This document shows positions 1 through 7,523 of a stretch of 7,523 bases of DNA, one piece after another (the stretch's first letter is position 1; each line of letters begins with the position of its first letter). Source of the stretch: a virus (taxonomy: Duplodnaviria; Heunggongvirae; Uroviricota; Caudoviricetes). The position numbers were made by a program, and so were the translations under genes. The notes under the pieces are model-generated. The model had not been told where the DNA came from. It searched no databases and saw nothing but the letters and a program-made list of their open reading frames with translations. The stretch covers positions 1-7,523 of the IMG/VR virus record IMGVR_UViG_2579779076_000001; one strand, written 5' to 3'.

Positions 1-119
1 TCGGTTCCGGCTCCACCAGCACCCTGCCGCAATGAAAAACAGGCCGTGATTCGCGTCCAGGCTTAAGGACCACCAGGCCAAGTTCCGGCACCAGAACAGG
101 TCGAAGTAATACCCGCACG

Positions 120-392
120 TTACCTCCAGATACGTTGCTGGAATGTGCGGGACGGACGCGGTGGATGTTCGGAATAAGGGAGCCTGACAGAGATTATCCA
201 GTGACGATAATCGAGGCTGATGGCTTTCTTAACCTCGTATCCGCGCCTGCGGTAACACTGAATCAGCCATTCGGCCTGTTCTTCAGTGCATGGGGGATGC
301 TGGTACCAGTCGGTTTTAAATACGTGCGAATGCCGCCCCCGCTTAATGGCCGGGACGGCTTCAGAATTGTGGGATTTTATACGTTGCGCCAT
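120..392 (-). CDS. hypothetical phage protein, basic, about 90 aa
   Basis: ORF-track ORF 120..410 begins with GTG; in-frame ATG at 392..390 has GGAGAA about 6 nt upstream; TAA stop at 120-122. No family recognised. An opposite-strand ORF (135..407) in the same triplet phase lacks any RBS and was not preferred. Confidence 0.5.
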   Translation of the reverse strand: MAQRIKSHNSEAVPAIKRGRHSHVFKTDWYQHPPCTEEQAEWLIQCYRRRGYEVKKAISLDYRHWIISVRLPYSEHPPRPSRTFQQRIWR

Positions 393-442
393 CGGGTTCT
401 CCGGTGACACAGCAGGTGCCAGTTGTTCAGGCCGGCGTGCGA

Positions 443-472
443 ATTGTAAACCAGAATGCCAGGAAAAAACAA
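443..472 (-). promoter_or_regulatory. candidate sigma70 promoter for the 90-aa gene (-35 TTGTTT, about 18-nt spacer, -10 TACAAT on minus strand)
   Basis: Minus-strand TACAAT at 448..443 with weak -35 about 18 nt upstream, immediately after the hok terminator T-run; leader of about 45 nt to the ATG at 392. Confidence 0.3.
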
Positions 473-490
473 AACCCGCAGAAGCGGGTT
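463..490 (-). terminator. rho-independent terminator at the 3' end of the hok mRNA
   Basis: Minus-strand hairpin AACCCGC-UUCU-GCGGGUU (plus 473-490) followed directly by UUUGUUUUUU (plus 463-472). Confidence 0.65.
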
Positions 491-558
491 AAGTGCGGGT
501 GCATTGAGGATGCCTGACACATCAGAGGTGGCGAGGGATTTCTCCCTCGCCGGGTCTC

Positions 559-714
559 TTACTTCTCAGATTCGTAAGCTGTGAAGACAGCGACCTCCGT
601 CTGGCCGGTTCGGATTCGTACCTCGCAGAGGTCTTTCCTCGTTACCAGTACCGTTACAACGACGGTAATACAGATGACGATCAGGGCGATTAGCATCGCC
701 TTTTGCTGCTTCAT
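559..714 (-). CDS. hok: Hok/Gef-family type I toxin (51 aa, single-TM membrane peptide)
   Basis: Translation MKQQKAMLIALIVICITVVVTVLVTRKDLCEVRIRTGQTEVAVFTAYESEK matches the Hok/Gef/RelF family almost residue for residue (recalled). ATG at 714..712 with AAGGAG about 9 nt upstream; TAA stop at 559-561. Confidence 0.9.
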   Translation of the reverse strand: MKQQKAMLIALIVICITVVVTVLVTRKDLCEVRIRTGQTEVAVFTAYESEK

Positions 715-771
715 AGCCTGCTGCTCCTTGCCTTTCGGCGCATAAGAGGCTAATCTAAGTGTGCAAGTCAT
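559..771 (-). CDS. mok: mok-like in-frame upstream reading frame (70 codons) overlapping hok
   Basis: ATG at 771..769 in frame with hok adds 19 N-terminal codons; TGAGG lies about 11 nt upstream. In-frame Mok extensions are known for chromosomal hok loci (MokC/HokC, recalled). Confidence 0.55.
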   Translation of the reverse strand: MTCTLRLASYAPKGKEQQAMKQQKAMLIALIVICITVVVTVLVTRKDLCEVRIRTGQTEVAVFTAYESEK

Positions 772-836
772 AGATATGGCCTCAGATTAATGTTAAGCGT
801 CCTGCAAGACGCATAATGTTAACTGGGGCTTTTCTC
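763..836 (+). ncRNA. sok: candidate Sok-like antisense RNA overlapping the mok start and hok leader
   Basis: Plus-strand -35 TTGCCT (728-733), 17-nt spacer, -10 TAATCT (751-756), start about 763; possible 3' stem 779-785/823-829 followed by TTTTCTCT (830-837). Position and size fit the hok/sok paradigm; ends are approximate. Confidence 0.35.
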
Positions 837-883
837 TGTCTGCCTTACGTCGGCATGCCCGAGGCAGACAGCCTCAAGCACCC

Positions 884-918
884 GCAGCAATTCTACTTAA
901 CTCTTCTTTCCCCGCAAA
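884..918 (-). promoter_or_regulatory. candidate hok mRNA promoter (-35 TTGCGG, -10 TAGAAT on minus strand), start about 883
   Basis: Minus-strand TAGAAT at 895..890 with TTGCGG about 16 nt upstream. The predicted 5' end GGGUGCUUGAGGCUGUCUGCC resembles the hok tac element, and an about 418-nt transcript to the terminator matches hok mRNA size. Confidence 0.4.
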
Positions 919-924
919 CCGTTT

Positions 925-1008
925 TTATCCCCAGCGGCAAATCGAATACACCACCAGCGCCACCGCCATTGCAATTCCTACCGTTATGAACGCTTCAGGC
1001 CAGGTCAT
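925..1008 (-). CDS. 27-aa hydrophobic micro-protein (MTWPEAFITVGIAMAVALVVYSICRWG), candidate small membrane peptide
   Basis: Below the ORF-track size cut-off. ATG at 1008..1006 overlaps the upstream TGA (ATGA); GAGGAG about 10 nt upstream; TAA stop at 925-927. One predicted TM helix. Confidence 0.3.
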   Translation of the reverse strand: MTWPEAFITVGIAMAVALVVYSICRWG

Positions 1009-1520
1009 CGTAAAATATTCTCCTCGTTTATCAGTCCGTTTCGCTTCAGGTAGTCCATCGCCTTATCCGGTAATTTGCAGTCCGGCTTCGCTTTTTTCAG
1101 TTGGCTGACCAGCCGTTTAACCCACATTGCTAATTCGCTAACCTGATTGCCGGATGCTGGTGGATTGTCGGCTTTACCCAGAATGGCAGCACAGCAGGCC
1201 TCTCTGAGCACCCAGTCAACAGCATCCTTCCATGCTCCTGTTTCGACTGGCGGATTCTCACGCTTTACCTGTTCATAAAAGCGCACAGCTTTAACCAGTC
1301 CTTCTGATGTCACCGGGACTGGCGGGCCGATGAATAAGGCCTGAATTTCATAGTTCGGCCTGTCGTTACAATCCTCTTTTGTCGGTACATATTTCCAGTC
1401 ACCAGCCCACGGCTTCCCCTGAAAGTCTGTAACGTCTTTTTTCACGTAGCGATATCGCCATGCAACTGGTTTTGCCTGCCCTGCCGTTTCATGCCCTTCC
1501 TGATAATTAATCTCGCTCAT
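1005..1520 (-). CDS. hypothetical phage protein, 171 aa
   Basis: ATG at 1520..1518 overlaps the stop of the upstream 58-aa ORF (ATGA); TGA stop at 1005-1007. Trp-rich N-terminal half; no family recognised. Confidence 0.7.
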   Translation of the reverse strand: MSEINYQEGHETAGQAKPVAWRYRYVKKDVTDFQGKPWAGDWKYVPTKEDCNDRPNYEIQALFIGPPVPVTSEGLVKAVRFYEQVKRENPPVETGAWKDAVDWVLREACCAAILGKADNPPASGNQVSELAMWVKRLVSQLKKAKPDCKLPDKAMDYLKRNGLINEENILR

Positions 1521-1693
1521 TCATCGCCCCACTCATCACAATATGCTTCGACCGGAGTTTTTCCTACTTCATAATCATCACGCCATGCTTCAGCATCAGC
1601 AGCACTGCCACCACGTAACTCTGCATAGTCCATTAACAGTTCATGCCATTCTTCAAAACTGACGTTGTATTTAGTTGAACCAAAATCAGCCAT
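1517..1693 (-). CDS. small acidic protein, 58 aa (MADFGSTKYNVSFEEWHELLMDYAELRGGSAADAEAWRDDYEVGKTPVEAYCDEWGDE)
   Basis: Not in the ORF track (under 60 aa). ATG at 1693..1691 with GAGGAAG about 8 nt upstream; start overlaps the upstream stop (ATGGCTGA) and its TGA overlaps the next ATG (ATGA). Confidence 0.5.
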   Translation of the reverse strand: MADFGSTKYNVSFEEWHELLMDYAELRGGSAADAEAWRDDYEVGKTPVEAYCDEWGDE

Positions 1694-1868
1694 TTTGTTC
1701 TTCCTCTTCGTCTTTTATTTCGTGATATGAGTAATTGCAGTAGTTAAAGAAAATTTCTTTTGCTTCGTTATGAATTTCATCAGGCGTCGCATCATCATTC
1801 ACTTCGAATTCATCCTCGAAATCTCCACCGGCGATTCCCGTTTCAATAATTATTTTGAACTTTCGCAT
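1686..1868 (-). CDS. small acidic protein, 60 aa, in an AT-rich island
   Basis: True ATG at 1868..1866; strongly acidic C-terminus (DEEEEQNG); visibly AT-rich compared with flanks; preceded by a 147-nt AT-rich intergenic region containing GC hairpins. Weak SD. Confidence 0.5.
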   Translation of the reverse strand: MRKFKIIIETGIAGGDFEDEFEVNDDATPDEIHNEAKEIFFNYCNYSYHEIKDEEEEQNG

Positions 1869-2015
1869 TTCACTACCGCCCTGCCGGGCGGTCTCCTGAT
1901 GTTCTGAGGGTGCAGGAATCCCTCCGGTTAAGGATTAAATTTTATTTACAGTGCTGATTTTAATTATTCAGTTCTGGATTATGCTTTCTCTTTCACCTGC
2001 CGTAGTTCCTGGTAA

Positions 2016-2321
2016 TTAATTTCGCTCACTGGTTGCCTCCTGGAAAATAACTGCATGCCCCAGTTTCTCCGCCAGTGCCAGCTCTGCCTTAGCGCCTGCC
2101 GACCGCTGCCAGCCTTCCAGCATATAAACCGCATCCACACAACGAATCATTGCCATGCAAATATCCATGTAATGTGGCTGAGTCAGCCCGTCCGGAAGTA
2201 CTGCGGGATTTAATACGGTATGCCCTTCCTGTTTCAGTGCTTCTTCCGCCTTGTGAAACGCCTCACGGTTGAAATTTTCATATCCCGTCATCGGACCGGC
2301 GATATAAATTCTCACCCTCAC
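2016..2321 (-). CDS. DUF4406 / nucleoside 2-deoxyribosyltransferase-like protein, 101 aa
   Basis: N-terminal R-I-Y-I-A-G-P-M-T-G motif, then F-N-x-x-A-F and V-L-N-P, typical of the NDT-like Rossmann fold (recalled). GTG start at 2321..2319 overlaps the upstream TGA (GTGA) with AGGAGG about 8 nt upstream; TAA stop at 2016-2018. Confidence 0.75.
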   Translation of the reverse strand: MRVRIYIAGPMTGYENFNREAFHKAEEALKQEGHTVLNPAVLPDGLTQPHYMDICMAMIRCVDAVYMLEGWQRSAGAKAELALAEKLGHAVIFQEATSERN

Positions 2322-2599
2322 GCCTGAACCCTCCTGTCGAAATAAACGTAGTTATTCACTGCGCCCAACTTCATCCCAAACTTTTCGGCAATTTCCCGTC
2401 GGGGTACGCCACGCTGATGCAGTTGCCGCGCCAGCTCAATATCACGCTGTGAACATTTGGCTGACTGGTGATAATCACCCCGTAACATCATGCAGATACC
2501 CAGTTCCCGCGCTTTCGTCCTGACGGCAGCCCCACTACGGCCAATCAGACTGCCGATGCTTTCGACTGTCATCGTTCCCGCACACTGCCGGAGTATCAT
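2318..2599 (-). CDS. small DNA-binding protein with two predicted helix-turn-helix motifs
   Basis: ORF-track start (GTG at 2722) lies inside the upstream gene. First ATG after the upstream stop is at 2599..2597; alternatives are GTG 2635 (GTGA overlap with upstream stop) and ATG 2572. HTH-like segments VESIGSLIGRSGAAVRTKAREL and RREIAEKFGMKLGAVNNYV. Start uncertain. Confidence 0.55.
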   Translation of the reverse strand: MILRQCAGTMTVESIGSLIGRSGAAVRTKARELGICMMLRGDYHQSAKCSQRDIELARQLHQRGVPRREIAEKFGMKLGAVNNYVYFDRRVQA

Positions 2600-2631
2600 A
2601 ATTTCCGCCCAGCGCCACTTCTTCCAGCCAC

Positions 2632-3348
2632 TCACCGCAGCAGCTCTCTGGTGGCGGTAATATCCCGGAGAATATCCCTGTGTTTGTTCAGTTCCCGCAG
2701 CGCGGCGCAGACACGCTCCCACTTCTGAACCTGACCTTTTGCCCGGCGCAGCTCGCGGTTAGCCACATGCAGCGATGGTAGAATCAGGTCATCTGCTTTC
2801 GTTTCGGTGACCGATGGCTGTAACTTCACAATGTCTTCCACGATTTCTGTTTTCATTTCTTCCTGTGTCGTCGTTTCCCGGACTGGTAACGCAACACCTG
2901 CTGGCTGAGGAAAGGCTTTACCATCGGTTTCCGCTACGGATGCAGCTTCCGGCTCTGCCGGTAAATCAGCGCCCGGTATGCAGTAACGAAATTTACCGCC
3001 CTGATTTACGCGAATCAGACGCCCTTTGCTGATTGCCATGGCCAGCGATGAATTCGCCCGGCGGGAGGTAATCCCGAACATAAGTGCCAGCTCATCCGCC
3101 GTTTGTGGGCCATGTTGTTCAATCGCCTCAGTCAGCATTTGCGCTGTCACTTTCGGTACCGGTGACACTGGTTCACTTTCACCTGCCTGAGTCAGCCACC
3201 ACATCGACCCCTTGTTATCCGCTTCACCACGGCGCTTCAGTTTCCACAGTTCGTTGACCGCATCTTCACGGCTGATTCCAAGGCGGGCCGCCACTACCTG
3301 TGAAGAGGCTCTTTTCAGTGCTTTCAGTGCGTCAAATACGGTTTCCAT
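2632..3348 (-). CDS. phage protein with tandem winged-helix domains and a C-terminal coiled-coil-like tail, 238 aa
   Basis: ORF-track start is TTG (3366); ATG at 3348..3346 has GGAGGAAA 7-8 nt upstream. Two internally similar wHTH-like segments (residues about 5-55 and 70-130) with shared GxKFRY-like ends; helical charged C-terminus. TGA stop at 2632-2634. Confidence 0.7.
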
Positions 3349-3381
3349 TAAAATTTCCTCCGACAAAATCGTTTCCCAGAT

Positions 3382-3843
3382 TCAAATAAAACCAGCAGCC
3401 TTCCGGCGTTCGTATTCCTGTTTCAGCCGTTCAATTGGCGTTGGCCCTTTCGGGTGTTTCGCCCCTTCCAGTTGTCGTCGCACTGGCGGAACACTCATCC
3501 CGTTACCAACATGCTTTGCCCATTTCGTCAGTTGCCGTTCCGCAAGTCGTTTTAACTCACCCTGCGTCATCTGGCGCTCAATCCCTCTGGTACGCATTTC
3601 GAGGCAGATGTGGTACAGCACAGGCTGTGGCCACGGGTATTTATCACTCCCGTCGTATCGCCAGGATTCATTGCGCCAGCGCCGGTACTCTTCCATCACG
3701 GCATCCACCGTAAGACCAAATGGATTTGCCCCACTCTCCGAAATCAGCGCAACAAACTCAGCCAGGTCCGGGGGCCACGTTTCACCCGCCCGGCAGCGGT
3801 CCATGCACTGACGGCAGACCAGACGGATTTGCTGTTCAGTCAT
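3382..3843 (-). CDS. lambda P-like replication protein (DnaB helicase loader)
   Basis: C-terminal two-thirds aligns by eye with lambda P (PPDLAEFVALISE versus PSPGQFVAWCREE; YPWPQPVLYH versus YPWKSNAHYW, recalled). Start chosen at ATG 3843..3841, overlapping the O-like stop (ATGACTGA). ORF is open up to ATG 4044, which has a good SD, so a longer 220-aa form is possible. Confidence 0.7.
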   Translation of the reverse strand: MTEQQIRLVCRQCMDRCRAGETWPPDLAEFVALISESGANPFGLTVDAVMEEYRRWRNESWRYDGSDKYPWPQPVLYHICLEMRTRGIERQMTQGELKRLAERQLTKWAKHVGNGMSVPPVRRQLEGAKHPKGPTPIERLKQEYERRKAAGFI

Positions 3844-4867
3844 CGCACCAATCTGGGCAATCCAGAGCTTCGAAGGTGCGGCCCCGTTCTTCTGAGTCCA
3901 GCGGTTCGAATACACCTCCCCCATAAGCTCCCACAGCTTCCAGGCCATTTCCGTTGCTGATAAATCCGTTGTCACGTTCCCACTGTTCGCGTGCTGCCCG
4001 GATTTCCTGAACTGCCCGTGATGCCGTGCCACCTGATGCTGCATGGCTTACCCCCTTGCTGACTGGTTTTACCTGTGCCCTGACGTGCTGCACGTGACGG
4101 GCAAATTTCTGCTCCCACTGAACCTGCGTGAAAACCTTCCCCTCCGCCATCCAGTAATCCCGGAATGCGGCAAGCTCAGCAGGTGTAAATTCCGGCTCAG
4201 GCAGAGCCATACCCCACACTGCTGCCCGTTGTCGAAAATCCGGCGACGGCTGCCAGACAGTAGTCATCGAAAATTTCCCGATGGGTTCGCTCAGGCCGTC
4301 CAGGTATTCAGGTTCGGCTGTCTGCAACGGCGCACCATTCGACTCACTGGTCGGAATACTCTCGCGCGCGTTATGTGTGGGGTTTAATTCTGTATCTGTA
4401 TCTTTATCTGTCGTGACTTGTCGTGACAGATGCGTGACACGTCGTGACTCATCGTGACAATCAGCATTATGTTTCCGCAGCTTTTCCCGCTCCCGCTGCG
4501 CTCTCTTACGCTCTGCCGGGGATTTTGCCGTTTGCGAAACGTTACCATTGTCCTCTTTCAGCACCTGACGTTTTTCCCATCCGGAAATAAGGTCACCATC
4601 CAGAACCCGCCCCTGCATTGCATGCAAAATTGAATCAATTACGTCTTCCGTCACATCAAGCGCACTTGCTAAATCTTCCGTCGTGACATCAATGTGACCA
4701 CGTAGTGACACGCCGTGACATGTCGTGACATTTCGTGACGCGCTCACCAGAAGGTGGATATACACTGCCATCACTGTTGCGATTGGCTGTCCTGATACCC
4801 TGGCAATCGTTCGCCACTTGGGGTCATTTGGCATGTCATGCCACAATCTGAGCCAGGCATTAGCCAT
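3836..4867 (-). CDS. O-like replication initiator / replisome organizer (N-terminal DNA-binding domain, DnaT-like C-terminal region)
   Basis: ORF-track start is GTG (4873); ATG at 4867..4865 has GAGGTG 3-4 nt upstream. Sits directly upstream of and coupled to the P-like gene and carries internal iteron arrays. Family assignment (DUF1376/DnaT-like) is from recall. Confidence 0.75.
   Translation of the reverse strand: MANAWLRLWHDMPNDPKWRTIARVSGQPIATVMAVYIHLLVSASRNVTTCHGVSLRGHIDVTTEDLASALDVTEDVIDSILHAMQGRVLDGDLISGWEKRQVLKEDNGNVSQTAKSPAERKRAQREREKLRKHNADCHDESRRVTHLSRQVTTDKDTDTELNPTHNARESIPTSESNGAPLQTAEPEYLDGLSEPIGKFSMTTVWQPSPDFRQRAAVWGMALPEPEFTPAELAAFRDYWMAEGKVFTQVQWEQKFARHVQHVRAQVKPVSKGVSHAASGGTASRAVQEIRAAREQWERDNGFISNGNGLEAVGAYGGGVFEPLDSEERGRTFEALDCPDWCDD
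4386..4458. repeat. iteron array 1: AT-rich direct repeats followed by five CGTGAC-core repeats at about 10.5-bp spacing (candidate origin)
   Basis: GTGAC at 4413, 4423, 4434, 4444, 4454 (spacings 10, 11, 10, 10), preceded by AT-rich ctgtatctgtatctttatctg (4390-4410). Lies in the linker-coding part of the O-like gene, as lambda ori does in O. Confidence 0.6.
4650..4739. repeat. iteron array 2: six GTGAC-core repeats at helical spacing plus one inverted GTCAC
   Basis: GTGAC at 4683, 4694, 4705, 4715, 4725, 4735 (spacings 11, 11, 10, 10, 10); inverted GTCAC at 4650-4654. Inside the N-terminal coding part of the O-like gene. Confidence 0.55.
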
Positions 4868-4935
4868 ACTCACCTCTTCTGATACCGAACTTTACCCACG
4901 AACTTCCGGAAGAAATCCGGTATAAATATTGTTGG

Positions 4936-5361
4936 TCAATGCACAACAACTGCATTACCAGGCTGACCACCACTGTTAGTCAGGGTGCCCCAGGCGATCG
5001 CTACAGCGACAAAATCATCCACATCTTTCACCAGCCGATCCCGTCGTTCGACGATCTCCCGGTAATATTCAGAACTGTGACTGCGCATACGGGCCACCAG
5101 CAAAGGCGGCATCGCCTTTTCGATCGCCGGTAACAGAGCCTGCATTTTTTCAACAGCATCAGGGGTGTCTTTATCCAGCCAACGGAAAATTTTCTGGGTA
5201 TTACGGGCCAGGGCTTCCGGATGGCTGTCGTCGTACAGTTCAGGGAACGTCATCCCCAGTTCGAAATAAGTCCGGGCTATTTCAGCTGCGGGAACTTTCT
5301 CACCGTCAGGATATGCCCAGGCATTCATCGCCATGCGGATGTGCTCATGCTTGATTTTCAT
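4936..5361 (-). CDS. ydaT: YdaT-family protein at the cII position of the immunity region
   Basis: N-terminus MKIKHEHI and length of about 141 aa match my recollection of YdaT proteins. ATG at 5361..5359 overlaps the Cro-like stop (ATGA) with GAGGAA about 8 nt upstream; TGA stop at 4936-4938. Confidence 0.65.
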   Translation of the reverse strand: MKIKHEHIRMAMNAWAYPDGEKVPAAEIARTYFELGMTFPELYDDSHPEALARNTQKIFRWLDKDTPDAVEKMQALLPAIEKAMPPLLVARMRSHSSEYYREIVERRDRLVKDVDDFVAVAIAWGTLTNSGGQPGNAVVVH

Positions 5362-5573
5362 GAATCATTCCTCATTTCGTGCGAGGTGTTATTCTTCTTT
5401 TTGTACAGCTCTGGGTTGTATTTCAATTCACCACCAGTAATTTCATCCAACTCAATTGCTCGAAGTTTTGGAATAACAGATTTCCACCGAACAACAGCCA
5501 CGTGTGAAATTCCCAGAGCCTCTGCTACTAGCCGCTTTTTTTTGAAATAGCGTAGGACATCATCTTTAAACAT
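5358..5573 (-). CDS. Cro-like / YdaS-like small HTH regulator, 71 aa
   Basis: ORF-track start is TTG (5609), inside the operator region. ATG at 5573..5571 has GGGGGAA 4-5 nt upstream. HTH segment LVAEALGISHVAVVRW; divergent from the CI-like gene across palindromic operators. Confidence 0.7.
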   Translation of the reverse strand: MFKDDVLRYFKKKRLVAEALGISHVAVVRWKSVIPKLRAIELDEITGGELKYNPELYKKKNNTSHEMRNDS

Positions 5574-5599
5574 AAATTCCCCCTGTAAAACCGAACCTA

Positions 5600-5664
5600 A
5601 AGGTAACAATAGTTACATGATAATGTCAACCATAGTGACATCCATTGGTAGTAACATTGGTTAC
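5600..5664. promoter_or_regulatory. OR-like operator region with leftward PR-like promoter
   Basis: Palindromes GTAACAATAGTTAC (5603-5616), TGTCAACCATAGTGACA (5624-5640) and GTAACATTGGTTAC (5651-5664) at about 23-25-bp centre spacing. Minus-strand -35 TTGACA (5629..5624), 18-nt spacer, -10 TACCTT (5605..5600), overlapped by the first operator. Confidence 0.55.
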
Positions 5665-6339
5665 ATGAACACTACTATTAGCGAACGCATCCGAAAGCGT
5701 CGAAGAGACATAGGTCTAACCCAACAGCAGGTTGCAAAGGCTATCGGCGTCACCCGTGTATCCGTAACAAAGTGGGAAAATGGTTCAACAAAACCGGACG
5801 GTGAGAATTTACATCTGCTGTCAAAACTGTTTTCCAAATCACCTGAATGGATTCTTTATGGGAAAGATATTCACGATCAAGTCGATGATTTGCGATTGAA
5901 TCAACTCCCCTACCTTAGTGACAACATCACCCGGTTGCCCGTTTTAACGTGGGAACAGGCTGGTTACTGGGATATGAGCTACCCAGTAACCGAAATCCCT
6001 GGTATTAAGAATTGGGTTGATGTCATGACAAAAACATCTGAAAACTCTTTTTTATTGCGCGTTGAGGGAGATTCAATGACAAACTCTAACGGTTTGCCAA
6101 CGATCCCCGACGGCTCCACGGTGTTGATCACTCCATGCTCTGGCAACATTGGGGAGATGGCGGGAAAGATTGTTCTAATCCAACTAGAAGGAATACCAAC
6201 TGTAACACTGAAAAAAGTCGCAATTGATGGCCCAAACATCTACCTACTGTCATTAAATCCGCTTTACAAGCCTATAGAACTCAATGGTCGCTACACCATT
6301 AAAGGTAAAGTCTCACAAATCCATCAATACTTAGATTGA
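5665..6339 (+). CDS. CI-like repressor: XRE-type HTH N-terminal domain plus S24 (LexA-like) autopeptidase C-terminal domain
   Basis: HTH segment LTQQQVAKAIGVTRVSVTKWENG; C-terminal domain with GDSM (Ser) and KK (Lys) dyad context. ORF-track ATG at 5617 would place two operators inside the coding region, so ATG 5665, abutting the third operator, is preferred (leaderless-like, as lambda cI from PRM). Alternative start 5617. TGA stop at 6337-6339. Confidence 0.8.
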   Translation: MNTTISERIRKRRRDIGLTQQQVAKAIGVTRVSVTKWENGSTKPDGENLHLLSKLFSKSPEWILYGKDIHDQVDDLRLNQLPYLSDNITRLPVLTWEQAGYWDMSYPVTEIPGIKNWVDVMTKTSENSFLLRVEGDSMTNSNGLPTIPDGSTVLITPCSGNIGEMAGKIVLIQLEGIPTVTLKKVAIDGPNIYLLSLNPLYKPIELNGRYTIKGKVSQIHQYLD

Positions 6340-6345
6340 CCAAAA

Positions 6346-6368
6346 GCCCGCATATATTGCGGGTTTTT
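6346..6368 (+). terminator. rho-independent terminator after the repressor gene
   Basis: Stem 6347-6352 / 6358-6363 (CCCGCA / TGCGGG) with 5-nt loop, followed by TTTTT (6364-6368), 7 nt after the stop codon. Confidence 0.7.
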
Positions 6369-6381
6369 CACACGCCTTTAT

Positions 6382-6429
6382 GTAACTTATAGAACACGCA
6401 TTGACTCAACGAGTAACTTCTGTTACCTT
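6382..6429 (+). promoter_or_regulatory. OL/PL-like operator-promoter for rightward early transcription
   Basis: Perfect operator GTAACTTCTGTTAC (6413-6426) and degenerate GTAACTTATAGAAC (6382-6395). -35 TTGACT (6401-6406), 17-nt spacer, -10 TACCTT (6424-6429): the same -35 / operator / -10 layout and identical -10 hexamer as the PR-like promoter. Confidence 0.5.
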
Positions 6430-6605
6430 CATTGCGTACCCACCCCGTCCCACAGAACGCCGGGCAATACTTCGAGTTACCCGGCAGTGGTCAGGGGTTA
6501 AGTAGCCAGCCCGAGGCGTATGAACATGACGGCGGGAACACTTTGTATAACAGCGCAGCAGGTTTTTAGTTCCGCTACCCGGCGTTAAGGGGAAATGAGG
6601 TCAAC

Positions 6606-6758
6606 ATGGATACGCTCAATCTTGGCAACAACGAATCTCTGGTATGCGGCGTGTTTCCCAACCAGGACGGCACGTTTACCGCGATGACGTATACCAGAAG
6701 CAAAACGTTTAAAACTGAAGCTGGCGCGCGTCGCTGGTTAACCAGAAACACTGACTGA
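6606..6758 (+). CDS. small protein, 50 aa (MDTLNLGNNESLVCGVFPNQDGTFTAMTYTRSKTFKTEAGARRWLTRNTD), possibly YdaF-like
   Basis: Not in the ORF track. ATG at 6606 with GAGGT about 5 nt upstream; TGA stop at 6756-6758 overlaps the next ATG (TGATG). Resemblance to Rac YdaF-type small proteins is a weak recollection. Confidence 0.5.
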   Translation: MDTLNLGNNESLVCGVFPNQDGTFTAMTYTRSKTFKTEAGARRWLTRNTD

Positions 6759-6769
6759 TGAGGTTGACG

Positions 6770-7144
6770 ATGGAATTTAAAGATTTACCACTACCATTCC
6801 AGGAAATGGCTGCGAATATAGTTCGTTCTCAACTGGCCACTCTTGACCTGAGTACCGTAGAAAAAGAAACCATCGATAATATATCCGGTAACGTACGCCG
6901 AGCCTTTATCGGGCTGTACGAAGAGAAGCAGCTCTCTGATAACCAGGATTTACATGAAAAATACTTTCTGGAATTAATGGACATCATTAATAAAGGATTT
7001 GGCTTGTTAATGAAAAAGAAAGGGATTCGAATAGCTCCCCTTGAAAATCATTTTACAGCAAGCAGTATTAACTCCTGTGATTTAAAGCATCACACATCCG
7101 ATGGGAAAGTTGAATCAAACAACAAAATATCAATTAATCATTAA
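6770..7144 (+). CDS. hypothetical AT-rich cargo protein, 124 aa, first sizeable gene of the PL-like operon
   Basis: ORF-track start 6758 (ATG) has no SD; ATG 6770 has GAGGT 6-7 nt upstream. Visibly AT-rich, Lys/Asn/Ser-rich C-terminal half; no TM segment; no family recognised. TAA stop at 7142-7144. Confidence 0.65.
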   Translation: MEFKDLPLPFQEMAANIVRSQLATLDLSTVEKETIDNISGNVRRAFIGLYEEKQLSDNQDLHEKYFLELMDIINKGFGLLMKKKGIRIAPLENHFTASSINSCDLKHHTSDGKVESNNKISINH

Positions 7145-7455
7145 TTTATTCACGGGTGAGGTAGAGCGCGTGCGCCGGACACGGATAAGAATCCGGCACT
7201 GACAGTTTACTGAAAGAACATATCCCTGAAAAGTCAGGGCATAACACGAAAGCGCACGGCGAGAATATAAGGCTTGTCGTTAAATTTAATTCGATCGTGC
7301 GCTTCCGGTTGTGGCAATCCGCGAAATGGCGCGGCGGTAAGTATGGCTGGGGCTTCCTCCATTGCTCCAGAAAATGCACCGGGTTGTCAGGTTGACCATG
7401 CGCCTGAGTGACAACACCGCCACAACAACCTCTGTTATCACTTTTCTGGTGATTC

Positions 7456-7481
7456 GGCGGAAATGGATATCCGCCATTTTT
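7456..7481 (+). terminator. candidate rho-independent terminator (plus strand)
   Basis: Stem GGCGGA (7456-7461) / TCCGCC (7470-7475) with 8-nt loop, followed by ATTTTT (7476-7481). No convincing upstream CDS in 7145-7455, so the transcript it ends is unclear. Confidence 0.45.
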
Positions 7482-7523
7482 AAAGTGTATTTTGTGATGC
7501 GGTGAATGCGGCTAAGCGCACGC

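Follow-up and report, generated by a model that had tools for sequence, protein, structure and literature searches.

The window analysed here is a 7,523-nt stretch of a Caudoviricetes virus (IMG/VR record IMGVR_UViG_2579779076_000001, positions 1 to 7,523), and its source is a Shiga toxin 2 (Stx2)-converting lambdoid prophage of Escherichia coli. On its minus strand, between positions 2016 and 3348, it carries a trio of tightly packed genes encoding a DUF1627-family protein, a small protein with two helix-turn-helix (HTH) segments and a DUF4406 protein. A preliminary description of this DNA had taken the three genes for one coupled module, with a function not canonical for lambdoid phages. Our analysis does not support the view of one dedicated module: the three families are commonplace accessory genes in the early-right region of lambdoid phages and assort separately. 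Nor is there anything unusual in their arrangement, 452 of 5,426 complete E. coli genomes having the trio in contiguous form. The best explanation, which we consider probable, is a joint one: the trio would be made of separately shuffled accessory genes, among which DUF4406 would encode a stand-alone nucleotide enzyme.

According to this explanation, the delayed-early (pR) operon would contain three accessory genes that are independent of one another and each mobile by itself, lying at the position of ren and the nin genes in lambda. They would be co-transcribed, and chained in translation via two GTGA overlaps, because genes in this region are packed in this way, and not because they form one machine. 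The first, a DUF1627 protein with segments resembling winged HTH (wHTH) domains at a sub-threshold level, occupies the position of Ren, and the third would remodel or clean up the nucleotide pool while the phage grows lytically.

Distribution of the three gene families

DUF4406 is a large family, with 17,659 clusters at 50% identity for E-values up to 0.001, and 6,112 for E-values up to 1e-10. From it we drew a diverse set of 80 species-representative loci, mostly from outside Escherichia, with DUF4406 at 43 to 68% identity. Within 6 kb of these genes, DUF1627 was not detected at all by tblastn and the HTH gene practically never, and among the 75 loci with enough upstream flank, none had a member of either family directly upstream of DUF4406. 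Profile hidden Markov models (HMMs) gave an HTH-family match in 4 of the 80 loci and a weak DUF1627-like match in 3, and the two were never found in one locus. The gene directly upstream of DUF4406 belonged to 61 unrelated clusters in this set, and was often joined to it by a 4-nt overlap.

Closer relatives tell of exchange as well. In 80 viral contigs of the E. coli type, the gene upstream of DUF4406 was the HTH gene in 36 cases and DUF977 in 43, nearly always with a 4-nt overlap. Where enough flank was available (69 contigs), 28 had the full trio, 18 had DUF1627 with another middle gene, and 23 had neither partner. The three families also differ in abundance. Across the complete E. coli genomes, DUF1627-like DNA occupies 7,214 places in 3,230 genomes, the HTH gene 2,469 places in 1,434 genomes, and DUF4406 1,642 places in 1,325 genomes. 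Alternative occupants for each slot and unequal abundances are the classic mosaic pattern of lambdoid accessory regions. A multi-gene system is recognised by co-occurrence in divergent lineages; what we found is no partner directly upstream in any of the 75 loci, unequal copy numbers and alternative occupants of the slots. The HMM and gene-neighbourhood surveys thus describe ordinary, unrelated nin-region proteins, an outcome that the preliminary description had itself named as fatal to the module.

The earlier account is right about which genes are present and about how closely they are coupled, physically and in translation, and the three minus-strand open reading frames (ORFs) are confirmed by the ORF list, the sequence and RefSeq. 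The DUF1627 gene (2632-3348, 238 aa) is a RefSeq coding sequence (CDS) that matches PF07789 and phrog_630, and its ATG (3348-3346) is preceded, 8 nt upstream, by a GGAGG Shine-Dalgarno sequence (3357-3361). The DUF4406 gene (2016-2321, 101 aa) begins with a GTG, in agreement with the RefSeq call, and has an AGGAGGG Shine-Dalgarno sequence (2329-2335) 7 nt upstream. As had been reported, this GTG and the stop codon of the HTH gene share a GTGA overlap (2318-2321; tcac on the plus strand), in the sequence as in the RefSeq coordinates.

The middle gene, previously given as some 90 to 105 aa long, is indeed present, and its start can be refined. RefSeq starts it at the ATG at 2599 (93 aa; WP_072094476.1 in ECA64). 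In an alignment of 32 homologues, W7, A10 and E11, all located before this ATG, show no or almost no variation; the homologues of Salmonella, Citrobacter, Pantoea and Enterobacter are 100 to 105 aa long, and the PHROG match of the protein starts nine residues before the RefSeq ATG. The only in-frame start taking in W7 and E11 is the GTG at 2635-2633, which overlaps the TGA of DUF1627 (2634-2632). Since W7 and E11 precede the ATG at 2599, and since this GTG is the sole suitable start, we place the HTH gene at 2318-2635, with 105 aa. The RefSeq start therefore appears mis-called, the GTG adding 12 residues that include an invariant Trp and Glu. With this start, both junctions of the trio become 4-nt GTGA overlaps, the additional one (2632-2635) combining the DUF1627 stop with the proposed GTG.

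Such overlaps tie DUF4406 to whatever gene precedes it in many other phages. For annotation, tight overlaps in the nin region are no evidence of functional coupling, the three genes are better not annotated as one system, and the RefSeq start of the middle gene is in all likelihood to be corrected.

Several observations nevertheless weigh against a complete independence of the three genes. In contigs anchored on DUF1627 and having enough downstream flank (66), the next gene was the HTH gene in 57 cases and DUF977 in 9; DUF4406 followed the HTH gene in 42 of 57 contigs versus 3 of 9 for DUF977 (Fisher p 0.024, uncorrected for shared ancestry), and an unrelated 75-aa ORF replaced DUF4406 downstream of HTH in 14 of the 57. 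Salmonella phages have kept the HTH gene directly behind a DUF1627-like gene, 4-nt overlap included, with the DUF1627-like protein diverged to 26% identity. In P1-like plasmid-prophages of the D6 type (33 viral contigs), DUF4406 lies directly upstream of an HTH homologue, in reversed order. Another contig (L328) has the order DnaB, DUF4406, orf55, HTH, and in Edwardsiella and Citrobacter DUF4406 is followed, one or two genes further on, by distant HTH homologues. Mosaicism does not fully explain the Salmonella and D6-type pairs.

What could these links mean? A first possibility is that DUF1627 and HTH form a two-gene DNA-binding unit, of regulatory or exclusion function and analogous to Ren in position, with DUF4406 as an unrelated passenger. 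This would be compatible with our preferred explanation for DUF4406 itself, and we regard it as a tentative, less probable alternative. All 66 DUF1627-anchored contigs have either HTH or DUF977 next to DUF1627, DUF1627 precedes HTH in 64 of 67 E. coli contigs anchored on HTH, and the Salmonella phages have kept the pair and its overlap; the second wHTH-like segment of the DUF1627 protein also has a weak match to the Ren-like phrog_142 (2.8e-5). However, places with DUF1627 outnumber those with HTH about 3:1 in E. coli genomes, unrelated genes stand upstream of HTH homologues in Pantoea, Citrobacter, phage D6 and other contigs, and the DUF1627 protein is devoid of the C-terminal ECRxSxxMxRVLAxY motif of Ren.

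A second possibility is a dedicated system of two or three components, made of HTH and DUF4406 with or without DUF1627, in which for instance a DNA-binding subunit would target or regulate an N-glycosidase for anti-defence or DNA modification. Both junctions of the trio are 4-nt overlaps, and 63 of the 67 HTH-anchored E. coli contigs carry DUF1627 upstream together with DUF4406 downstream; these 67 contigs nevertheless amount to about one lineage, because their sequences are at least 84% identical, and the E. coli samples as a whole are mostly closely related prophages. The Fisher test, the adjacency found again in reversed order in D6-like elements, and that at a distance of one or two genes in other genera, also speak for such a system, as does the region itself, in which accessory and anti-restriction genes are known to concentrate; in the Salmonella locus, a methylase, a Lar domain and a dATP/dGTP pyrophosphohydrolase are found close by. 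On the other side, DUF4406 has some 17,600 clusters, and no HTH-family gene lies within 6 kb of it in 76 of the 80 species-level loci; among the 43 E. coli-type contigs in which DUF977 precedes DUF4406, the identical overlap is almost universal; and HTH homologues live without DUF4406 in Salmonella, Pantoea and Citrobacter. The contexts of the distant homologues (65 to 78% identity) are in fact varied: in Salmonella, a DUF1627-like gene of 244 to 259 aa stands upstream and DUF4406 is absent; some have P directly upstream; in Pantoea and Citrobacter, they lie among unrelated small genes of the early-left operon, beside the integrase and exonuclease VIII, respectively. Finally, PADLOC-DB 2.0 gave no match for the DUF4406 and HTH proteins, and a chance-level one for DUF1627 (SWIM_XIII, E 0.005). 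We therefore find this second possibility unlikely.

The narrower proposal, that HTH and DUF4406 are functional partners joined by overlap in both gene orders, and might form a DNA-guided or DNA-regulated N-glycosidase acting on nucleotides or DNA bases, in anti-defence or DNA editing, draws on the D6-type elements as well as on the genes found one or two positions apart in Edwardsiella and Citrobacter. In phage D6 (orf89-orf90, 4379-5304 of contig L396), a DUF4406 with a C-terminal extension of about 100 aa is joined by a 4-nt overlap to a 105-aa HTH homologue. However, the co-occurrence of HTH with DUF4406 in the diverse set, about 5%, is close to a rough estimate of the HTH frequency per prophage in E. 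coli, calculated from 2,469 HTH places in 5,426 genomes and our own assumption of about 7 prophages per genome. Because co-occurrence is so near this background, we hold a functional pair to be quite improbable.

Some features of these loci are worth recording for themselves. After the D6-type HTH homologue come a ClpX-type zinc-finger protein and then Ea22-like genes, and the tail of the DUF4406 extension resembles the C-terminus of orf171 of the window (1005-1520; BLASTP E 0.002). The Salmonella prophage with the DUF1627-like/HTH pair (contig L314, 5362-6393) encodes a 343-aa protein that combines PF04447 (dATP/dGTP pyrophosphohydrolase), Lar and DUF551, followed by a large DNA methylase; the region illustrates how nucleotide-pool and anti-restriction genes gather.

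The DUF4406 protein as a candidate nucleotide enzyme

The assignment of the third gene to DUF4406 is clear: PF14359 matches with 127.1 bits, against a cut-off of 22 (E 3.5e-37), over profile positions 2-91 of 91. The NDT-like nature of the protein (NDT, nucleoside 2'-deoxyribosyltransferase) and the intact IYIAGPMTG motif, both proposed from the outset, are upheld, the motif being conserved. The predicted model (predicted local distance difference test, pLDDT, 91) has a flavodoxin-like alpha/beta fold with a parallel sheet, and would make the protein a minimal, four-stranded member of the NDT superfamily. It scored 11.7 against MilB, 10 to 11.3 against several NDTs, and 9.2 against Rcl/DNPH1. 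MilB and BlsM are N-glycosidases of cytidine monophosphate (CMP) and hydroxymethyl-CMP, and DNPH1/Rcl is a 2'-deoxynucleoside 5'-phosphate N-hydrolase.

Sequence searches of the PDB with DUF4406, as a single sequence or as a profile, returned chance matches only. As such searches and alignments gave nothing usable, active-site residues were mapped by motif, on sequences of DNPH1 and of the Lactobacillus leichmannii NDT that were verified as identical to the PDB entries. Two motifs correspond. At the N-terminus, RIY6IAGPMTG of DUF4406 resembles LYFCGSIRGG of DNPH1 and IYFGAGWF of NDT, so that Tyr6, at the end of strand 1, would be the counterpart of the Tyr that orients the catalytic Glu (Y7 in NDT, the Tyr of LYFCG in DNPH1, Tyr6 in the phage enzyme DmtZ). 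After strand 3, S74AGAKAE80LALA resembles SLGVGYELGRA of DNPH1 and DVGLGMELGYA of NDT, and S74AGAKAE80 has the form [S/D]-x-G-x-x-x-E that would supply the catalytic Glu. PDB entries include variants at these residues (E-to-Q in 8qhq, Y7F/D72N in 9gn4). A degenerate active site had been named beforehand as an outcome that would refute the earlier reading; here the family alignment shows no variation at Y6, D53, S74 or E80, 30 divergent DUF4406 fusion proteins keep the G-x-x-x-E core, and for these two reasons we regard the site as not degenerate. These fusions (30 long proteins) were also searched for informative partners, in the manner of a Rosetta stone: no second Pfam domain was found, and the PHROG partners were heterogeneous and unannotated. 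The label of phrog_12019, 'MazG-like', is a tentative one.

The substrate may be approached through recent work on phages with Z genomes, in which the NDT-like enzyme DmtZ acts as a deoxyadenosine monophosphate (dAMP) hydrolase and as a deoxyribose-5-phosphate transferase, with the triad Tyr6/Asn77/Glu103 (PMC12884076, 2026). Hydrolases of 5'-monophosphates have uncharged, space-saving residues where nucleoside transferases hold an Asp or Asn for the 5'-OH, and a conserved Pro, said to shield the active site from water, marks the transferases (PMC12884076). In DUF4406, the invariant Ser74 is a small uncharged residue at one of the two positions of the 5' pocket (the other, in Rcl, is Ser117). 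We propose that Glu80, positioned by Tyr6, would attack C1' of the nucleotide and free the base, and that Ser74, where true nucleoside transferases have an Asp, would leave space for the 5'-phosphate. Because of this space, a (deoxy)nucleoside 5'-monophosphate would be the likely substrate, in line with DNPH1, MilB and DmtZ. DUF4406 would then be a (deoxy)nucleoside-5'-monophosphate N-glycosidase, with transferase activity possible. Most likely, it is a stand-alone, intact minimal enzyme of the NDT superfamily that hydrolyses, or transfers from, nucleoside 5'-monophosphates.

Four points count against this assignment. The match to PF05014, the family of the NDTs proper, is below the gathering threshold (17.2 versus 28.8 bits), as is one to DUF1937; hhalign and profile-to-sequence comparison with single DNPH1 and NDT sequences yielded no alignment; D53, the invariant candidate for the third residue of the triad (an Asp or Asn in helix 2), falls two positions away from D72 of NDT when the motifs are simply aligned, C55 being an alternative; and our literature search found no biochemical data for any DUF4406 protein, DUF4406 and DUF1627 appearing merely in passing, in gene lists.

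Two other activities were considered. DUF4406 might be a true NDT that swaps bases between deoxynucleosides for salvage, and not a nucleotide hydrolase. The label of phrog_355, which matches DUF4406, is indeed nucleoside 2-deoxyribosyltransferase, and Pro39, after strand 2, is invariant in the alignment and may be the equivalent of the transferase Pro. However, Ser74 replaces the Asp (Asp92) that binds the 5'-OH, the hydrolase MilB outscores every NDT, the PF05014 match is sub-threshold, and a protein of 101 aa is without the C-terminal segment which, in 1f8x, we take to carry Asn123 and Tyr157. We tend to set this hypothesis aside as improbable. That DUF4406 would be an anti-defence enzyme of the Toll/interleukin-1 receptor (TIR) type, cleaving nicotinamide adenine dinucleotide (NAD+) or a nucleotide immune signal, is very unlikely, given that its best matches are hydrolases and transferases of the NDT superfamily, that it has the NDT-type Tyr and S-x-G-x-x-x-E motifs, that PADLOC gave no match and the literature no support, and that a literature search on deoxyribosyltransferases and anti-defence found nothing relevant.

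The nucleotide N-glycosidase that we favour would matter beyond this prophage. DUF4406 is among the larger uncharacterised enzyme families of temperate phages, and about one quarter of complete E. coli genomes contain it, frequently within Shiga-toxin prophages. Should it prove to be a nucleotide N-glycosidase, a DNPH1-like enzyme would serve to manipulate nucleotide pools in many ordinary phages whose DNA is unmodified.

The two DNA-binding candidates and the surrounding genes

The DUF1627 protein matches PF07789 with 277.3 bits (cut-off 28.1, E 3.9e-83) over the whole profile (1-155 of 155), at residues 82-236 of the 244-aa ORF, and phrog_630 at 9e-117. An alignment including Salmonella members of 26 to 27% identity shows two conserved segments, the first of them N-terminal, then a variable linker rich in acidic residues and Pro, and a conserved C-terminal helix with the motif PSL..NRELRR.K..QKWE..A.RE.NK.R; the usable homologues are otherwise all at least 83% identical. 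The description of a 238-aa protein with two winged-helix domains and a tail stands as far as the length and the C-terminal helix are concerned. The two wHTH domains are plausible: both conserved segments have wHTH matches, all sub-threshold (MntR, 0.008; Z-alpha, 0.1-0.2; AbiEi_4, FeoC, TrmB, DUF5817_CT), and the second of them is the one with the weak phrog_142 match, at residues 77-126.

DUF977 (131 to 145 aa), the alternative gene before DUF4406, has a C-terminal motif, N-x-x-x-x-EC-x-x-S-x-x-M-x-RVLA-x-Y, in common with lambda Ren (BLASTP 1e-5). Because of this common motif, it is apparently a longer relative of Ren, a protein for which we found no significant Pfam family match. The Ren/DUF977 type (ECRxSxxMxRVLAxY, about 96 to 140 aa) does not extend to DUF1627, as the motif is absent from all members aligned. 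Searching the literature on Ren and the nin region returned general lambda papers only.

The HTH protein is modelled with moderate confidence (pLDDT 74.5). Its N-terminal half is predicted to be a three-helix HTH of the GcrA/Myb type, and its C-terminal half an HTH like that of resolvases and sigma region 4, although the Pfam GcrA and Myb profiles gave no match even at E-values up to 10. It would thus be a small bipartite HTH DNA-binding protein. Searches with the trio in NCBIfam returned nothing; with the silence of PADLOC and, essentially, of the literature, this agrees with the earlier statement that no described system corresponds to these genes.

The prophage to which the window belongs is 99.9% identical to one located beside yccA in ECA64 and many strains of Shiga toxin-producing E. 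coli (STEC), and RefSeq annotates the same three genes in this Stx2 prophage inserted at yccA. The immunity region and the early-right operon are on the minus strand of the window. After a LexA-like repressor (5617-6339, plus strand), the minus-strand order is a Cro-like protein, a YdaT-family protein in the position of cII (4936-5361; 'toxin YdaT family protein' in RefSeq, with no lambda-type CII there), an O-like initiator with a DnaT domain (3836-4873), a lambda-P-like helicase loader (3382-3843; Pfam Phage_lambda_P 1e-15, phrog_109, RefSeq CDS) and the trio. The placement of the trio directly after the P-like gene, at the ren/nin position, with DUF1627 in the place of ren itself, is therefore as first described. 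Downstream, still within the window, come DUF7167, two small ORFs, a hok/sok locus and a GIY-YIG-like ORF, and, beyond it, DUF968, RusA, a DUF1133 protein, a methyltransferase, tRNAs and stx2.

Inside the trio (2016-3348), Rfam models had no match, and a scan for promoters and terminators found no promoter-like and no convincing terminator-like site, site counts corresponding to chance expectation. A weak terminator-like hairpin at 3391-3407 was considered as a separator between P and the trio, and rejected, such sites being no commoner in the window than by chance. Outside the trio, the Rfam scan revealed two elements. The first is part of a complete hok/sok-type toxin-antitoxin locus of the nin-like region (559-883, minus strand), where the Hok/Gef Pfam family matches the ORF at 559-771 (3.9e-23) and sok matches at 709-883 (113 bits). 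The second is a weak match to an isrK-like small RNA (469-550, minus strand; 29 bits versus a gathering score of 50, E 0.003), which ends in the best intrinsic-terminator-like hairpin of the window (473-490, followed by a T-run), between hok and the GIY-YIG-like ORF.

Within the O-like gene, two clusters of (T/C)CGTGAC repeats with a spacing of about 10 nt (4402-4458 and 4677-4739) are probably the iterons of the origin, split into two arrays some 270 nt apart. A short ORF in another frame (1979-2045, minus strand) overlaps DUF4406 at its 3' end; it contains VSEINYQE, similar to the MSEINYQE at the N-terminus of orf171. Inside the 3' end of DUF4406, most related contigs have the start of an ORF that is Ead/Ea22-like according to annotations in phage matches. 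Stretches of about 40 to 70 nt at 1900-1971 and 2001-2041 recur, with 90 to 95% identity, in the unrelated HK106, Rac, RCS47 and an Actinobacillus phage, and have the appearance of a deletion scar and of sequences at mosaic boundaries.

Comparison with known systems

Like lambda ren, the DUF1627 gene lies directly after P, and the second conserved segment of its product weakly matches the Ren-like PHROG; the protein is 2.5 times longer than Ren, with another C-terminus. The HTH gene is unrelated to ren. Its product may be compared with the DNA-binding domain of GcrA, with Myb repeats and with the bipartite HTH of Tc3 and resolvases, from which it differs by having no sigma-interacting or catalytic domain.

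For DUF4406, the NDTs (PF05014; 1f8x, 1s2d, 6evs) provide the first comparison, and differ by the family score, by Asp92 in place of Ser74 and by the C-terminal part of the subunit, missing here. Small NDT-like proteins of the 1t1j/DUF1937 type have 17% identity to DUF4406, and are likewise uncharacterised. DNPH1/Rcl and MilB/BlsM are longer (about 145 to 165 aa, compared with 101 aa and four strands), and have no similarity to DUF4406 detectable by phmmer or hhalign; DUF4406 also differs from DNPH1 and MilB by the Pro after strand 2, which we interpret as of the transferase type. DmtZ acts with PurZ0 and DutZ for the production of 2-aminoadenine DNA, whereas neither of these two genes is present here and the DNA of this phage is, to our knowledge, ordinary. 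Compared by description, DmtZ and DUF4406 are nevertheless alike in being phage-encoded, stand-alone or fused members of the NDT superfamily, with a Tyr/Glu pair, an uncharged pocket that would accommodate the 5'-phosphate, and a conserved Pro.

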